A DNA stretch of 64,000 nt from Nostocales cyanobacterium 94392 (GTDB taxonomy: Bacteria > Cyanobacteriota > Cyanobacteriia > Cyanobacteriales > Nostocaceae): the NCBI GenBank assembly GCA_035285725.1, contig JAYKJL010000131.1:54485-118484 (forward strand). Direction: 5' to 3'. How positions within the stretch are numbered: the stretch's first letter is position 1; each line of letters starts with the position of its first letter. A model generated the notes under the pieces. That model was not told where the DNA came from. It searched no databases and saw only the letters and a list, made by a program, of their open reading frames with translations. Shown piece by piece: positions 2,330-57,069 of the stretch. Position numbers and translations under genes: made by a program.

Positions 2330-3544
2330 ATGAGCCATCCGGAAATGATGGTATCGAGTCAATTACTCGATGAATTTAGAACTTGTACTCAATTACAATA
2401 CAGTGGCAAATTAAACATCAAAAGTTCCAAAGGGAATAAATGGGTTTTTTACTACCGATTGGGTCGTATAGTTTGGGCAACTGGAGGAACTCATCCCTTC
2501 CGACGCTGGCGCAGACACATCACCCAACATTGCCCGGATATTGATATTGACAAAATGCAATTAAATTCGGCAGAAATATCAATCTCAAATGATTATTGGG
2601 ATTATAAACTGCTAGAAATTCTACATGAAAAGCAGAAAATTAAGCGCGAATATATTAATTCTGTAGTAGAAAGAACTATTGCAGAACTGCTGTTTGATTT
2701 AGCTCAACAAGCGCATTTTAATCAAATTCATTGCGATCGCAGTGCTGATGTCATATTGGAAGCACCGATGAGCTTTACAAGTGCAGATATGTCTTTGAAG
2801 TTCATGGAAGATAGTTGGAAAAATTGGTCTGAAGCCGGTTTGGCAAATTTTTCTCCCGATTCGGCTCCAATTTTACGTAGACCCGAACAGTTACAGCAAA
2901 TGGTAAGTCCAGCTGTGTACAAAAACTTTGTGAATTTGATGAACGGTAAATACACCCTACGGGACTTAGCCGTGAAAATGAAGCAAAGTCCTTTACCTAT
3001 AGCTCGTTCATTATTACCTTACGTCCTCAAAGGTATCATCGAACTGATAAAAGTCCCCGATTTACCTTTCAAAATAGGTGACGGTCAAAATACACCGACA
3101 GTGGAACCGGAACCGGAACCACCTGCGGGTCCGTTAATAGCTTGCGTAGACGACAGTCCTCAAGTCTGTCAGATGCTCGAACAAATTCTTGTCCCTCAAG
3201 GACTAAGGTTTATTAAAATTCAAGACCCCGTACAGGCTTTACCAGTTTTGATTGAAAATAAGCCAGACTTAATTTTCTTAGATTTGGTGATGCCAGTTGC
3301 TAGTGGTTACGAAATTTGCGCTCAACTGCGTCGGATTTCAGTTTTTGCAAATACACCAGTAATTATACTTACAGGAAGTGATGGTTTATTTGACCGAGTT
3401 CGTGCCAAAGTAGTTGGTTCCACAGATTTTATTACCAAGCCTGTAGTAGCTGATAAAGTACTGGGGATAATACGCAAATACATACATACTCAATCTTCTG
3501 TCAAAGGTAGTTCAAATACACAAATGTCATTAAGGCATTCTTAA
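2330..3544 (+). CDS. PatA-family response regulator (PATAN + REC; PixG/PilG-like)
   Basis: YYRLGRIVWA PATAN segment; receiver motifs CVDDSP, FLDLVMP, ILTG, FITKP. Confidence 0.9.
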   Translation: MSHPEMMVSSQLLDEFRTCTQLQYSGKLNIKSSKGNKWVFYYRLGRIVWATGGTHPFRRWRRHITQHCPDIDIDKMQLNSAEISISNDYWDYKLLEILHEKQKIKREYINSVVERTIAELLFDLAQQAHFNQIHCDRSADVILEAPMSFTSADMSLKFMEDSWKNWSEAGLANFSPDSAPILRRPEQLQQMVSPAVYKNFVNLMNGKYTLRDLAVKMKQSPLPIARSLLPYVLKGIIELIKVPDLPFKIGDGQNTPTVEPEPEPPAGPLIACVDDSPQVCQMLEQILVPQGLRFIKIQDPVQALPVLIENKPDLIFLDLVMPVASGYEICAQLRRISVFANTPVIILTGSDGLFDRVRAKVVGSTDFITKPVVADKVLGIIRKYIHTQSSVKGSSNTQMSLRHS

Positions 3545-23119: not shown

Positions 23120-23416
23120 ATGCTTGCAATTTATCTGATGCTATTGATTCTTGCTTTGGGTACTATATGGCTGGGATTAAAGATAGCCGAAGAAGTCTAT
23201 CGTATTGCAGTAGTATTTACTGGAGTAATACTTTTGATAATGGGGTTTGTATTGGCTCCATCATTTATACAAATAGCTAGTGTATTGCTGTTATTTGGAG
23301 TTTACCAACTCTATGTTTGGCAACCGAAATTTAATATACTTGTGAAAAACGAAGTTCAAGTTGTGGAAACAGTTAAATGTGTAGGTTCTAACTGTTCGAT
23401 GGTAAATGTTGATTAA
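23120..23416 (+). CDS. Small hypothetical membrane protein (2-3 TM)
   Basis: Hydrophobic 98-aa ORF; purine-rich sequence precedes the ATG. Confidence 0.6.
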   Translation: MLAIYLMLLILALGTIWLGLKIAEEVYRIAVVFTGVILLIMGFVLAPSFIQIASVLLLFGVYQLYVWQPKFNILVKNEVQVVETVKCVGSNCSMVNVD

Positions 23417-23656
23417 TTGAATAACCGAACTTTATGAATTGTTAAAGACTTTATAGTGTACTAGCTTTTGAATGTTCGTAGTACTTATTAGTAGTACTTA
23501 GAAGAATCTAAAATCTCAAAACCCCAATTGCGATAAGTAAAAACTCCGCACTCCTTTGCGTTTCTTTGCGTTAAAAATATATAATACGAATTCGCAATTA
23601 ACAAACCCGGCATTGGTGAATAAAAAGATTAATTGATGATTTTACACGTAGAAATA

Positions 23657-24036
23657 CCGGGAGCGAGGTCACGCCCCGTGTTTTTAACCCGGGGTGGAAA
23701 AGCGACGCGAGCAGATTTATCTGCATTCAAAAAAATGCTAAAATGTTAACAGCAAGTAGGAATAACCATCTACGTGATGAAACATCCTAGTAAGGCGAAA
23801 TCCCTGCAACGTAGACCCGACTATTGATTAGCACGACTAAACGAGCAAGTAATGGCAGGATGTTGAGCGTACCATATTGGCATAGTGATGGACTCGGAAA
23901 GCAAAATAATTAGTGAAAGTAAGCGCAATTGCAGCATCTTTAGAGGTAGTTGTTTTGAGCGTCTAGGGGGATATTTGACTATCCCTTTTAAGCAAGTCTT
24001 AAAGAATCTGCCTCTCTTTAGAAGGCAGAGTGTCAA
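23657..24036 (+). mobile_element. ORF-less IS200/IS605-family derivative (left-end hairpins + TnpB-type right end)
   Basis: Left hairpins CCCCG..CGGGG (23674-23694) and GCAGAT/ATCTGC (23711-23724); right end GAATCTGCCTCTCTTTAGAAGGCAGAGTGTCAA; no transposase ORF. Confidence 0.72.
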
Positions 24037-24045
24037 ACATGATTT

Positions 24046-24068
24046 GAGACGTAGCAATGCTACGTCTC
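24046..24068. repeat. REP-like perfect palindrome GAGACGTAGC-AAT-GCTACGTCTC
   Basis: Relatives at 40346-40366, 48260-48288 and 55992-56020. Confidence 0.75.
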
Positions 24069-24096
24069 TACAAAAATTTTTAATGTACTATAAAAC

Positions 24097-26307
24097 TTAA
24101 CCGATTAAGTTCATCGCTCTTTGTTTCAAAGCTTCCGCAGTCAAACCGTTAAATTTCATTAATTCACCTGCACTGGAAGTGGTTTCTCCACGTTTCCATG
24201 CAAAAGTGTCTCTTTGACAATTACTTCGTAACATTACGGGTTCCAACATCGCTGCTGCACCGCCGGTAACACCAACTAAGGCATCTCCATCAAACATTTC
24301 GGTAAATTTAGCATCATCAACAAAATCGCCGTCTGCTTGCGAACAGACATCCCAAGCTACATCATGGGGACGATATAAACGACGGGGGTTAATGATAGAA
24401 ACGATTTTGACTCCGACATTTTGTTGTTGTAATAATTCCGCAGCTTCGTATACTGGTTTTAACATCATGTCACCAATAACCGCAAAAACAACTTGTTTAT
24501 TTCCAGTGGTTTCTTGTAAAACTATGGCACCATCTGTTAAAGCTTGACGGGATTGTTCAAAGGTGGTAAGAATCGGTAAAGGTGATTTACTAGCGGTAAT
24601 GATGATTCCTTTATTTTTAGTAGTCAATGCCCATTGGTAACAAACTTGAATGCTGTTAGCATCAGTAGGGAAAAGTGGGAAAATATTGCCATTACGCATC
24701 ATCGAAGCAAAGTAAGCCTCTATTTCTGGACGTTGATGAGTCCATCCATTACGTCCTTGTTCTAATGCACCAGCGGTAAATAAAGTTATTGTAGAAGGTG
24801 TAGCGCGACGTAATTCTGCCATTGCTTGAGTTACAGTTTGCCAAATTGGTAAACCGTTGATGGCGAAGGATTCGTAAGAACACCACAAACTGCGTCCTCC
24901 CATCAAGCATAAACCAGCAGCTAAACCGGCACAAGCATCTTCGCTCAAGGGTTCGTAAACTTGTCCTTGGGGAGCTTGGTTGTAAGTATCATCTGTTGTC
25001 GGGTGGATAATTTTTAAAGCTTGGTTAATATTACCAATACCGGATGCAGCGTTTCCATCAGCGTTGGTAACTAAGAAATTCTTGTCAGCTTGTCCCACCT
25101 TCCCTACTAAAACTCCCATAGCCGTAGTAGAAACTTTTGCTTCTCCACCGACTTCAAACTCTTGCAAAGGTAACTCACCTAGTTCAGATAATTGTAACTC
25201 AAATTCTGTCACCGCAGTTTTCCCAGCCGGTCCACCACCAGCGCGATCGCAATTTGTTCGGACTAATTCCCAAGCTTCTACGGGTAGAGCGCGTTTTTTC
25301 AATGCTTCTATGATATGAGGTGCATCTAAAGTATCCTGGGGATAAAGGTTGTGAGATTTAGAACCTGTAGCGTGAACTCCAGCACCTTTGAGTTGTTTAA
25401 TAATAAATACGGTTAGTTTACCACCAAGGGCAGATTTTGCGGCTCGATCGACTCCTTGAATAACAGATGAAGTAAATGCTAATCTTTGCTCAAAGGAAAA
25501 TTCGGTACTATCAACATATTCCCCTGGTTGATTTTGATCCTCAAAGTCTTTGGCATTAATTAAAACGACTTCCTCAAAACCGTTTCCGCGCCAATAGTGG
25601 ATCATCTCTTCGTTGGTTTTCAAGGAAACCATACTATGATGTTCCTGACTGTAACCATTCCACACCAACACGGGGAGAAAATTGGTAATTGTGGGAAAAG
25701 CTGTGTTAAAATGCGCCATTGAACTCATGATATAAGGTTCCCCTAAACCTCCATCACCAACAGTAAAGGGAAATAATTTATCTTGATTTAAATAAGCCGC
25801 AGCCATTGCAAAATGTTGACCTTGACCTAAAGGACCCGCAGGTGCAAGAATACCAGGAATCATTCCCGAAAGGTGTCCCAGTAGTCCGTGTTTTTCACGG
25901 TAACGTTCCCGTAATTGTTCCACGGTCATAATACCCATATCTTCTAGGGAACGGTCAAGAAACATGGCACTATAAAATCCGGGAGCGTGGTGTCCTACTT
26001 CGGTGATAATATTTTTGTAACCGAGCATGACTAAAGCAGCGTAAGCTTCCGCTTGAGATGCAAAACCACCCGGATGTCCTGAAGCTTTACTGCCAGTAAT
26101 TTGTAATGTTAAATAACGTAAAGCATCAGCATAAAGTAAAGTTTGGTAAATTGCTGTGGTATCTTGAGTATCGCTAATGGCGGTTTTGCCTTCTGGTATG
26201 GCAGTTTGCTTACCGTATTGCTCAAAATTCGGTAAAGCTTCCCCAAAATATTGAATACCTTCACAAAACTTGGGAATTGATGTTGCTTTGGGTGTTGTTG
26301 CTGTCAT
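24097..26307 (-). CDS. xfp: Phosphoketolase (TPP-dependent, cyanobacterial type)
   Basis: SGHPGG, EVGHHAPG, AGPLGQG, TPP motif GDGGLGEP...N, EPLSEDACAG, GRNGWTHQRP. Confidence 0.85.
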   Translation of the reverse strand: MTATTPKATSIPKFCEGIQYFGEALPNFEQYGKQTAIPEGKTAISDTQDTTAIYQTLLYADALRYLTLQITGSKASGHPGGFASQAEAYAALVMLGYKNIITEVGHHAPGFYSAMFLDRSLEDMGIMTVEQLRERYREKHGLLGHLSGMIPGILAPAGPLGQGQHFAMAAAYLNQDKLFPFTVGDGGLGEPYIMSSMAHFNTAFPTITNFLPVLVWNGYSQEHHSMVSLKTNEEMIHYWRGNGFEEVVLINAKDFEDQNQPGEYVDSTEFSFEQRLAFTSSVIQGVDRAAKSALGGKLTVFIIKQLKGAGVHATGSKSHNLYPQDTLDAPHIIEALKKRALPVEAWELVRTNCDRAGGGPAGKTAVTEFELQLSELGELPLQEFEVGGEAKVSTTAMGVLVGKVGQADKNFLVTNADGNAASGIGNINQALKIIHPTTDDTYNQAPQGQVYEPLSEDACAGLAAGLCLMGGRSLWCSYESFAINGLPIWQTVTQAMAELRRATPSTITLFTAGALEQGRNGWTHQRPEIEAYFASMMRNGNIFPLFPTDANSIQVCYQWALTTKNKGIIITASKSPLPILTTFEQSRQALTDGAIVLQETTGNKQVVFAVIGDMMLKPVYEAAELLQQQNVGVKIVSIINPRRLYRPHDVAWDVCSQADGDFVDDAKFTEMFDGDALVGVTGGAAAMLEPVMLRSNCQRDTFAWKRGETTSSAGELMKFNGLTAEALKQRAMNLIG

Positions 26308-40312: not shown

Positions 40313-40664
40313 ATTATGTTTAAGAAAATCGCATAATTAATGTAGAGACGTTGCAGTGCAACGTCTTTATTTATTATTTGGTAATCAGTAAAAATTACCG
40401 AATCAATTTGATTACAAGTATTTAACCAGACATACTATCAAATATCAATTATAGGTAATTTATATCACGGCATAAACAATAAAACCGTATTTATATTGAG
40501 AAAAGACCGCTATTATTTATATAGTTGCTGTATGTAAAAAATGCTGTCCTTACCGAACAGAAATATCTAATTAGGGTAAGTAACGACTTGTAGAAAAAGA
40601 GATGATAGCGGGGATAGGGAACCGTTAACAGTTAACAAGGAATAATAACTAATCATCGCTCATA

Positions 40665-52526: not shown

Positions 52527-53576
52527 TTAACTAGCAATCCTTGGAGGATTGACCATATCGTTATTTTTAAAGTCAAATCCGGCTTCCGTTAAACGAGCGC
52601 GGCTAGCGTGCCATATATGTCCGCAGAGAAATAGGGTTGCAAAAACAAGATGAAAACTTACCAACCATCCACGAGATGACACTAAATCAGGAGAAGATTC
52701 GATCATCTTTACCGGACCGTAAAATACTTCTGGATAAACTGTGTCATTGAAAAAGGCAAAGGTTGCAGCCAGAAAGCCCATATATGCTATAGCACCTAAA
52801 CTATAGGATAAATAAGCCTCTCCAGACCAAACTAAAATTTTCTCTGTCCAGGGAAATGGCTTGCTGATCATGTGCCAAATACCACCACCAATACACATTA
52901 AACCAACCCAAATATGACCCCCAACTACATCTTCGAGGTTGTCTACAGCAGCCATACCTGTAGCACCATGAACGGGAAATAAATAACTAAAAATTCTTAA
53001 TGGGTTGAGTGTAGGATTGCTAATTACTCTCACGTCTCCACCGATTCCCAGATTCGGATCAAATAGTCCACCCCATAACATCGCTTTGGCGACTAATAAC
53101 CAAGCTCCGACACCCAAAAGAATCAGATGAATTCCTAAAATACTGGTCATCTTATTTTTATCTTTCCAGTTGTAGCCAAAAAAGCCTGCAAAAGTAAAGT
53201 TTTGTGGTAGTACACTCGGTCCTCGCAATGAGTGAAATATACCACCTGCTCCTAAAACTGCTGAGGAAATTAAGTGCAATATGCCAATTATGTAATAGGG
53301 TTCAATATCATTTACTGCACCTCCACTACCTACACCTAAACCGAGGCTTGCTAAATGTGGAAGTAAGATTAAACCTTGTTCGTACATTGGTAAAGCTGGA
53401 TTAAAGTGTGACAATTCAAACAATGTCATTGCACCAGCCCAGAATACTATCAAACCGGCATGAGCAACATGAGCGCCCAGTAATTTACCGGATAAATTGA
53501 GCAACCGAGCATTACCACGGTACCAGTCAACGTCACTAAAGCTATATCTTCGATTGGATAAAGTTGTTACAGTCAT
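52527..53576 (-). CDS. IsiA/Pcb (CP43-like) chlorophyll-binding protein
   Basis: [35 protein letters not shown]. Confidence 0.92.
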
Positions 53577-54987: not shown

Positions 54988-55953
54988 TTAGAGGTTTATT
55001 TGACGGGAACGCCAAGAATGCCAAATATAACCACAAAAAGCTAGAATTCCCAGAAAAAGCTGTACATTTGCTGTTCCCAAACGGTCATAACCATAAAACT
55101 CGCGAGGAAATACCACTTGATTGTAAGCCACAAATGGAATAGAAATAAAAGCCATCAAAGCTAAACCAAGCAGGCTATAAGAAAGAATTTCCTCACCATT
55201 CTCAATTGGGAAAATTCGCCTTACCCATCTGAACGGTGGTACTAAAATATGCCAAACTCCACCGAAAATCAACATTAAACCGACCCAAATATGACCGCCG
55301 ATGACATCTTGTAAATTGTCAACACTTGCCATTCCTAAAAGAGTCCAACTGCCATGTTTGAAACCGACTAAGTAACCAAAGATAATACTTGGGTCGAGAG
55401 TTGGGTTACTAATTAATCGAACTTCACCGATATTACTATCATAAATTCCACCAAAAAACATCGCTTTTAATACTAAAAGAAATGCCCCGAAACCGAGAAC
55501 AATCAAATGATTGCCCAAAATAAAACCTAATTGTCTGGGGTCGTTCCATTCATAGTGAAACTTCGCCACAATTCCACCAGGACTATACAAAACAACCGGA
55601 CCGCGAAATACATGAAAAAGTCCACCTGCACCTAAAACTGCTGAAGCGATTAAATGTAGAATACCAATAACAAAATAGGGATAAGTATCAATCACTTGAC
55701 CATTAGCACCAATACCCCAGCCCAAGGTTGCCAGATGTGGTAGTAGAGTCATCACCTGTTGATACATTGGTACTTCCGGGACAAAGCGTAATGCCTCAAT
55801 CATGGTAATACTTCCCGCCCAAAACATGATCAAACCTGCATGAGCAATATGAGCGCCGAGTAATTGACCAGACAAATCGGTTAAACGAGCATTACCGATT
55901 AACCAGGGTGAATCTGTACCTGATGCGAAAGTTTTATCTGTTGAGACAGCCAT
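54988..55953 (-). CDS. Divergent IsiA-family chlorophyll-binding protein; likely start 55953
   Basis: GNARLTDLSGQLLGAHIAHAG; short helix V-VI loop. Confidence 0.9.
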   Translation of the reverse strand: MAVSTDKTFASGTDSPWLIGNARLTDLSGQLLGAHIAHAGLIMFWAGSITMIEALRFVPEVPMYQQVMTLLPHLATLGWGIGANGQVIDTYPYFVIGILHLIASAVLGAGGLFHVFRGPVVLYSPGGIVAKFHYEWNDPRQLGFILGNHLIVLGFGAFLLVLKAMFFGGIYDSNIGEVRLISNPTLDPSIIFGYLVGFKHGSWTLLGMASVDNLQDVIGGHIWVGLMLIFGGVWHILVPPFRWVRRIFPIENGEEILSYSLLGLALMAFISIPFVAYNQVVFPREFYGYDRLGTANVQLFLGILAFCGYIWHSWRSRQINL

Positions 55954-56025: not shown

Positions 56026-57069
56026 TTATGATTGACTACCAGCAGTAGCGACAGAATCCAATGCTTTACCAAACTGTTTGAAATCAACACCAATAGCTCG
56101 TAGCGCGTGCCAAAGATGTCCTTGCAAAAAGAAGAAAGCCAGGAAGAAATGAGTATTTGCTAACCATGCTCTAGCTGTATGAGCGCCTAATGGTAAATCT
56201 ACAGTGTCGGCAAAATAAGGACAAATGCCAAATTTTAGTTGTAGAACCGAACCGTAAAACTCAACAGGATAAGCTAAAGTATTAACTGCACAGTAGTAAG
56301 ATGCGACAAATCCAGCTAAGGCTATTCCTCCCAAAGAGTAAGAAAGAATTGCTTCACCGGAGAAGATTAACAACCTTTTTGCCCAAGGTAAAGGTTCCTG
56401 GATAATATGCCACACTCCGCCCCCAATTAACATTATGCCTACATAAATATGTCCACCTACTAAGTCTTCGAGATTATCGACACTAGCAAAATGAGTCTGA
56501 TAACCATATATAACTAGTGGGTTCAGAGTCGGATTTGTCACTGTACGGACAGTCTGAGATGCAGCATCATAGAGTCCGCCAAAATACATTGCTTTAACGA
56601 CCAACAATAAAGCTCCCAAACCTAAAAATAGCAGGTGGTGTCCTAAAATAATCCCCAATTGTTTGGGATCATCCCATTCAAAGTGGAATTTGCGAGCTTG
56701 TCCAGTGGCATCTTTCAAATTTTTCGGTCCTTTGAAGGTATGGAATAACCCACCTGCACCTAAGACAGCAGATGAGATTAAATGTATTGCTCCAATAGCA
56801 AAATAAGGATATGTATCAACTACAATTCCACCATCTCCGACACCAAAACCCAAAGTTGCTAAATGAGGTAATAAAATCAATCCTTGGTCACCCATGGGCA
56901 TATTAGGGTTATATCGAGATAGTTCAAATAGAGTGAATGAACCAGCCCACAGAGTAATTAAAGCTGCTTGCGCTGCATGAGCGCCGATAAATAAACCTGA
57001 TAATTTGGCGAAGCGTGCATTACCAGCCCACCAATCATATTTAACTTTGGGATTATCGTAAGTTTGCAT
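56026..57069 (-). CDS. isiA: Iron-stress-induced chlorophyll-binding protein IsiA
   Basis: [50 protein letters not shown]; AGGAG RBS. Confidence 0.95.

Follow-up and report, generated by a model that had tools for sequence, protein, structure and literature searches.

A gene-less IS200/IS605-type element of cyanobacteria that probably carries a stand-alone omegaRNA gene

Can a transposon with no protein gene of its own still supply a guide RNA to a nuclease encoded elsewhere? This question is raised by a short noncoding locus in the genome of Nostocales cyanobacterium 94392, in a 64,000-nt stretch of DNA that we call the window. A first-pass annotation of the window had described an ORF-less element with hairpins, an extended -10 box pointing inward, and a GC-richer interior. 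All of these were present, and we refined the coordinates to 23648-24036. It had also suggested that the right part of the element is the scaffold of a TnpB guide (omega) RNA, that deletion of a nuclease gene had produced the element, and that the guide might address many sites in the genome. These three suggestions fared differently, as described below.

The element and its insertion site

The features of the locus are as follows.

23644..23647, plus strand: TAM (target site) ACAC, outside the element, placed by alignment with empty sites; the family consensus is WCAC
23648..24036, plus strand: whole non-autonomous IS200/IS605-type element, 389 bp, with no protein gene
23648..23735, plus strand: left end, containing two hairpins
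23673-23695, plus strand: imperfect subterminal hairpin in the left end
23711-23724, plus strand: second left-end hairpin, GCAGA-TTTA-TCTGC
23736..23744, plus strand: predicted extended -10 promoter box TGCTAAAAT, with a predicted start near 23751
23751..23886, plus strand: 5' RNA domain of about 140 nt, specific to the gene-less lineage (RNAalifold)
23840..23916, plus strand: putative tnpB 3' coding remnant (RuvC-III NADCNG codons), now RNA only (nhmmer, weak)
23917..24036, plus strand: 3' omegaRNA-type scaffold (covariation, model R1)
24007-24029, plus strand: right-end hairpin, whose stem has compensatory changes, followed by AGTGTCAA ending at 24036
24033..24036, plus strand: transposon-encoded motif (TEM) TCAA, the right-end cleavage site, found in 44 of 46 copies
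24037..24056, plus strand: predicted guide segment ACATGATTTGAGACGTAGCA, supplied by the flank and assigned by position only, from omegaRNA anatomy
24046..24068, no strand: palindrome GAGACGTAGCAATGCTACGTCTC of a host repeat, 23 bp, found 162 times in the genome when up to 3 mismatches are allowed

The element is a discrete mobile insertion, far beyond chance, because it is an insertion relative to three congeners, has four copies in the host genome, and has relatives in 53 stretches of public genomes. To locate empty sites, we joined both flanks and searched the resulting 518-base query against the genus. Three congeners have an uninterrupted locus (508 to 520 aligned bases, 87 to 88% identity). 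Alignment with the empty sites of genomes G021 and G013 is gap-free only if the insertion lies directly after ACAC. A boundary that puts ACAC inside the element was rejected, because it would need a 4-nt gap against both. In the empty-site alignment, ACAC precedes the left end, TCAA closes the right end, and there is no target-site duplication. The empty sites in congeners also suggest that the element has been mobile recently in the host genome.

Homologous copies from other genomes agree with these boundaries. The flanks of 46 such copies are unrelated, and their sequences diverge right past TCAA. Left ends were recognizable in 31 copies, in which CAC is preceded by T (18 copies), A (12), or G (1). 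Both ends of the element have subterminal imperfect hairpins instead of terminal inverted repeats, as is characteristic of IS200/IS605 elements. "Peel-and-paste" transposition of IS200/IS605 elements is recognized by a TAM and a TEM, by donor joints without scars, and by the lack of a target-site duplication (PMC10055086). Therefore, WCAC, TCAA, and scarless empty sites with no duplication identify this as an IS200/IS605-type element. Its G+C content is 43%, compared to 30% in the flanks.

Neither tnpA nor tnpB is present inside the element, as the first-pass annotation had noted. Every frame has stops, the longest open frames are 56 and 71 codons, and a blastx search of the element against the TnpBs of the host genome returned chance-level matches only. 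A minus-strand frame of 70 to 99 codons is open in many copies, and it has early stops in several. Its register shifts between copies, and its codon-position diversity is 0.25/0.21/0.19, so that third positions vary least. With a shifting register and no third-position excess, the frame is noncoding, and a hidden small minus-strand protein was rejected. We also looked for known RNAs. No Rfam 15 family matched at its gathering score, positions 23300-24300 gave only chance-level matches at an E value of ≤10, and no tRNA or tmRNA was found in the 64-kb window. Elsewhere in the window there are three full-length matches to the IsrR antisense RNA (52982-53168, 55371-55548, and 56499-56676; about 140 bits each), which imply three tandem isiA-like genes.

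The element sits in a dispersed host repeat of about 90 bp, which spans both sides of the insertion point (23610-23647 and 24037-24120). As the first-pass annotation had noticed, the palindrome of this repeat has relatives elsewhere. The palindrome (GAGACGTAGCAnTGCTACGTCTC) has a second copy in the window at 40345-40367, and the repeat occurs many times in each of the 27 genomes of the genus. At our locus, the palindrome is followed by a T-run and lies between convergent transcription units. Palindrome and T-run together are probably a terminator, bidirectional-like, for the convergent gene at 24097-26307 (minus strand).

A structured RNA region and its relation to tnpB-linked scaffolds

Sequence conservation runs from the TGnTAAAAT box through the downstream region of about 290 nt to the right end, with 70 to 99% consensus bases. 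The box itself has the consensus TGATAAAAT, each base of which is 70 to 99% conserved in 46 copies. A profile hidden Markov model (HMM) of the left end also covers the box in distant copies. A simple -35/-10 scan did not call the box.

The RNA region is under structural selection. In the 5' domain, RNAalifold predicted 16 pairs, 6 of them with compensatory changes, including long-range helices that join 23771-23775 to 23867-23871 and 23782-23788 to 23857-23863. The changes fall into two main haplotypes and therefore represent few independent events. For the 3' domain, we built a covariance model (R1) of the last 121 positions of the element. Its helices join 23967-23973 to 23980-23986 and 23987-23992 to 23998-24003, followed by the terminal hairpin. 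Across copies, the 33 pairs of the 3' domain are 98.7% paired, and 11 have changed on both sides. None of 500 shuffles reached any of five measures, and slid controls were 40 to 55% paired. The fold of the single sequence was no better than that of shuffles (z = -1.5), and so the structural case rests on covariation and not on folding energy. The terminal hairpin doubles as the right-end hairpin recognized at the DNA level, and its covariation could reflect DNA recognition by TnpA rather than an RNA. The compensatory changes in the four internal helices are not accounted for by DNA recognition by TnpA.

The suggestion of an omegaRNA-type scaffold predicts that tnpB-carrying elements share the right end. 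They share both ends by homology. An element in genome G014 that carries a Y1_Tnp gene (Pfam E value, 3e-33) and a frameshifted tnpB has a left end 82% identical to ours. The left-end HMM found matches upstream of about 40 tnpB loci, scoring up to 70.7 bits, and in the host genome it matched contigs C21, C39, C242, C138, and C152. At the right end, R1 matches directly follow the tnpB genes on host contigs C314, C162, C147, C152, C71, and C69, which have in common the module GAAUC-stem-CUUUAG-stem-GAG(U)GUCAAA. We then assembled a set of 80 loci whose products are related to the C314 TnpB and ran R1 against 79 of these. All but one had a match, and in 71 of the 79 the match was full length and collinear, with scores of about 18 to 54 bits. 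In these loci, the R1 match starts 85 nt upstream of the tnpB stop codon, continues for about 35 nt past that codon, and ends at the right end (in locus positions, R1 is at 2308-2430 and the tnpB C terminus is at 2001-2393). Because R1 thus covers the last part of tnpB and the sequence from there to the right end, it has the position of an omegaRNA scaffold. This homology supports the reading of the right part of the element as an omegaRNA-type scaffold.

The RuvC-III motif of the C314 TnpB is NADCNG, which places the protein in the "derived" NADxN clade of TnpBs (PMC10691335). In an nhmmer search, the element was collinear with the last 175 nt or so of tnpB in two loci, L241 and L222, although the matches were weak (15 to 21 bits). 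This collinear similarity reaches back to the NADCNG codons, which suggests that about 23840-24036 originated as the 3' end of a tnpB gene. Furthermore, the element RNA and the tnpB-linked scaffolds have unpaired motifs and loops in common (AAGUA, a UUGAC loop, and GAAUC).

However, no tnpB-linked scaffold was a close match. Gene-less RNAs score 55 to 142 bits with R1, compared to 18 to 54 bits for every tnpB-linked copy examined. Among the 79 C314-type tnpB loci, we found no full-length tnpB copy with the exact scaffold, and none scored above 54 bits. Therefore, no demonstrably cognate TnpB was found. Even L215, the tnpB element of G009, whose left end is closest to ours among full-length elements, had a poor R1 match at its right end (17.6 bits). 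Its left end is visibly near-identical, and the same contig gave a 94% match, but it diverges right past the second hairpin and has no TGnTAAAAT box. We also searched with a model of the 5' domain (R2). No match was found at the collinear place in the 79 tnpB loci of other genomes or in three of the host genome, and all R2 matches were gene-less copies. The score gap, the missing box in L215, and the absence of R2 from tnpB loci argue that the gene-less elements are a separate, long-lived lineage.

These results modify the proposal that a nuclease gene was removed while promoter and scaffold stayed. The scaffold part holds, given the homology to the tnpB 3' end. That the promoter stayed is unproven, because neither the box nor the 5' domain was found in tnpB-linked relatives. 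A one-off deletion product is also not what we found, because the element scores with the old gene-less lineage. An intermediate-sized derivative does exist in a Nostoc sp. metagenome-assembled genome (MAG) (L181:1802-2430), in which a left end lies about 115 nt upstream of the last 139 or so tnpB codons, followed by a right end. Part of the 5' domain of a gene-less copy is just upstream of it, at 1573-1705.

Distribution of gene-less copies and candidate partners

The RNA region is present in four copies in the host genome: the window copy, C314:5-275, the end of C157, and the start of C143. Contig C21 has a matching left part of the element. The assembly consists of 318 contigs, none under 2.5 kb, and the RNA-region copies other than that in the window sit at contig edges.

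To survey other genomes, we used an exact 22-mer from the most conserved hairpin, which occurred in 53 stretches of a collection of public genomes. Among the hosts are Calothrix, Nostoc, Plectonema, Rivularia, Tolypothrix, Scytonema, Anabaena, Sphaerospermopsis, and Planktothrix. Nearly all of the 53 are a short form of about 390 bp with constant spacing and differing flanks, and none has a tnpB-sized frame upstream. Close copies are carried by Calothrix brevissima NIES-22 (L056, 88% identical) and by Scytonema hofmanni UTEX 2349. R1 was more inclusive. It matched 186 of 401 sampled genomes of the order, and in some genomes all eight of eight scored candidates matched. We sampled 20 mid-scoring matches (55 to 97 bits). 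Fifteen aligned over nearly the whole RNA of about 290 nt, in several of the 20 the alignment took in the -10 box or the left end as well, and none had tnpB upstream. Across the order-wide sample, gene-less copies are 70 to 90% identical and occur in many genera. No neighboring gene was found to be conserved beside the copies, at either the exact-motif loci or the sampled mid-scoring loci. The short form is thus the normal form, and the copies make up an old and widespread gene-less lineage, present in dozens of filamentous cyanobacteria.

Some individual loci are worth recording. In four genomes of Planktothrix and related MAGs (L059, L061, L088, and L097), the element is at one locus with identical left and right flanks, which suggests vertical inheritance in this Planktothrix-like group. 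In locus L234, a gene-less copy (2709-2995, minus strand) and a full tnpB element that ends at 2431 are arranged tail-to-tail, so that about 280 bp separate their right ends. The host genome has a second kind of gene-less element outside the window (C239:85440-85835). Its left end is related (40 bits with the left-end HMM), and it has about 390 bp of different noncoding cargo and a different terminal hairpin, CCCAGTCCCTTTAGGGCTGGG, followed by TTACTGACA. Also outside the window, C138:7530-7642 is a left end with TCAC and hairpins (66 bits). Unrelated sequence follows it, with a long open frame on the opposite strand, and this may be the element's left end joined to a different cargo.

A gene-less element would depend on proteins encoded elsewhere, and candidates are present. 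The host genome has 19 matches to the TnpB zinc ribbon and 7 to Y1 TnpA. Candidate partners are the NADxN-type TnpBs on C314 (cut by the contig end), C173 (394 amino acids), and C152 (454 amino acids). In a tally done by hand and confounded by phylogeny, 48 of 55 genomes with a strong RNA match (E value of ≤1e-9) carried a C314-type TnpB C terminus (E value of ≤1e-15), compared to 244 of 401 overall. This co-occurrence is suggestive only. Most of the seven strong-RNA genomes with no C314-type TnpB at that threshold belong to a single genus, and other TnpBs are present in all but one of the seven. Several genomes of genus g75, which is probably the Planktothrix-like group, have strong RNA matches and no C314-type TnpB at an E value of ≤1e-15.

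What the RNA might do, and comparison with known systems

We consider it likely that the element is a PATE-like, non-autonomous member of the IS605 group that carries a stand-alone omegaRNA gene and has TnpA and TnpB supplied in trans. In the proposed mechanism, a Y1 TnpA encoded elsewhere in the genome would excise and insert the element in the form of single-stranded DNA. An RNA of about 290 nt, made from the element's own promoter, would run over the right end into the flank, and each copy would thereby gain a locus-specific guide (here, one beginning ACAUGAUUUGAGACGUAG). A compatible TnpB from a full-length relative would bind this RNA in trans and cut the WCAC-flanked empty site left by excision, and recombination with the sister copy would restore the element. 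The element would therefore parasitize both TnpA and TnpB.

The predicted guide would be supplied by the flank. The flank downstream of the right end differs at every locus, and so there is no conserved target. At our locus, the second half of the guide is the left arm of the host-repeat palindrome, which had led to the idea that the guide might address many repeat sites. There are near-matches in the host genome; the one on contig C110 has a single difference in 20 bases, and several more have 3 to 5. However, among 77 sites within 5 mismatches in 20, none is preceded by a WCAC TAM. For TAM-dependent cleavage, we therefore rejected the idea that the guide targets the host repeat at many of its copies. 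In an untrimmed transcript, it is possible that the 3' half of the guide would pair with the other arm of the palindrome.

One alternative is that the RNA has been co-opted for a role other than TnpB homing, as a regulatory or scaffold RNA or as a guide for a different or nuclease-dead TnpB relative. The new function would then reside in the lineage-specific 5' domain. That domain (about 23751-23886) is conserved and covarying, yet it is absent from tnpB-linked loci, and the gene-less RNAs are a separate, higher-scoring group. Co-option could also explain why the Planktothrix-like copy is at one locus in four genomes and how several g75 genomes have the RNA without a C314-type TnpB. Even so, we think this rather unlikely. 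Guides that differ at every locus leave no conserved target, and no gene is conserved beside the copies. Intact ends, TAM, and TEM, together with apparent recent mobility here, are expected of a selfish element. Furthermore, the loops and unpaired motifs that the RNA has in common with tnpB-linked scaffolds point to the same protein partner.

It is less probable still that this is a miniature transposon at the DNA level only, mobilized by TnpA, with no functional RNA and with its conservation due to recent spread and the requirement for DNA hairpins. Terminal hairpins, TAM, and TEM are indeed what TnpA needs (PMC10055086), and the element appears to have moved recently. However, DNA-level needs do not explain a -10 box conserved across genera or compensatory changes in four internal helices far from the ends, and order-wide conservation at 70 to 90% identity goes beyond recent copies. 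An inert, decaying remnant of a tnpB insertion sequence would account for a missing tnpB frame and weak residual similarity to its last codons, but it is very improbable given two intact ends with an empty site in congeners, full-length copies that are numerous, alike in architecture, and spread over many genera, and 98.7% of predicted pairs kept.

A stronger version of the stand-alone omegaRNA reading is that the element is an RNA-only hyperparasite of IS605 elements, old and independently evolving, that has acquired its own promoter and the 5' domain. We regard this version as speculative and probably not correct. If it were true, the 5' domain might give stability or processing independent of TnpB, preferential loading into TnpB ahead of the parent element's guide, or use by another effector. 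Host co-option of the RNA would then be possible in lineages with a locus-fixed copy, such as the Planktothrix-like group, to which g75 probably belongs and in which several g75 genomes show no NADxN-clade TnpB.

Under the stand-alone omegaRNA reading, the significance of such guide-only mini-transposons is that the transposase, nuclease, and guide of an IS605 system are separable. The family is good material for study, because it occurs in a large share of the 401-genome sample and has empty sites in close relatives, a clear TAM (WCAC), a conserved promoter box, and enough covariation for a structure model. It could help to define the RNA requirements of NADxN-clade TnpBs, and it may show, in a natural setting, how parasitic guides compete with the guide that a transposon encodes itself.

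As a kind, guide-only elements have been described before, and the cyanobacterial family adds a member but no new principle. In a literature search of incomplete coverage, we found no paper on this gene-less family, and it was not in a cyanobacterial RNA-structure screen (PMC12873609). PATEs were first named in Haloquadratum (PMC3119063). PATEs of IS200/IS605 elements often encode omegaRNAs, and PATE-like elements with omegaRNAs have been described in Geobacillus stearothermophilus (Meers et al. 2023, PMC10055086). Like PATEs, the element has no protein gene, it has the ends of an IS200/IS605 family that also has members with tnpA and tnpB, it inserts next to a TAM without target duplication, and it has a right-end omegaRNA-type module that would need TnpB in trans. 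The Geobacillus elements come from a different host phylum and involve a different TnpB clade, whereas ours belongs with the NADxN clade. It also differs from PATEs in having its own conserved extended -10 box and an extra structured 5' domain of about 140 nt, and its gene-less lineage is old and spread through much of the order.

Stand-alone mobilized omegaRNAs work in trans with compatible effectors (Altae-Tran 2021, as summarized in PMC10691335). The element resembles these OMEGA guides in that its guide locus has neither effector nor transposase, while loci with effectors exist elsewhere in the genome. Their activity in trans was shown, whereas that of our element is predicted and its compatible TnpBs are candidates.

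The element also resembles the autonomous elements IS608 (Helicobacter pylori) and ISDra2 (Deinococcus radiodurans). Like them, it has subterminal imperfect hairpins, a target motif of 4 to 5 nt 5' of the left end, and a related motif that closes the right end. For IS608, these motifs are TTAC and TCAA. In IS608 and ISDra2, the omegaRNA scaffold shares sequence with the 3' end of tnpB and goes no further than the right end, as is also the case for the scaffolds related to ours. However, IS608 and ISDra2 carry tnpA, tnpB, and an omegaRNA, whereas our element has neither gene and its TAM is WCAC. By sequence similarity, it groups with cyanobacterial elements of the NADxN clade and not with IS608 or ISDra2.
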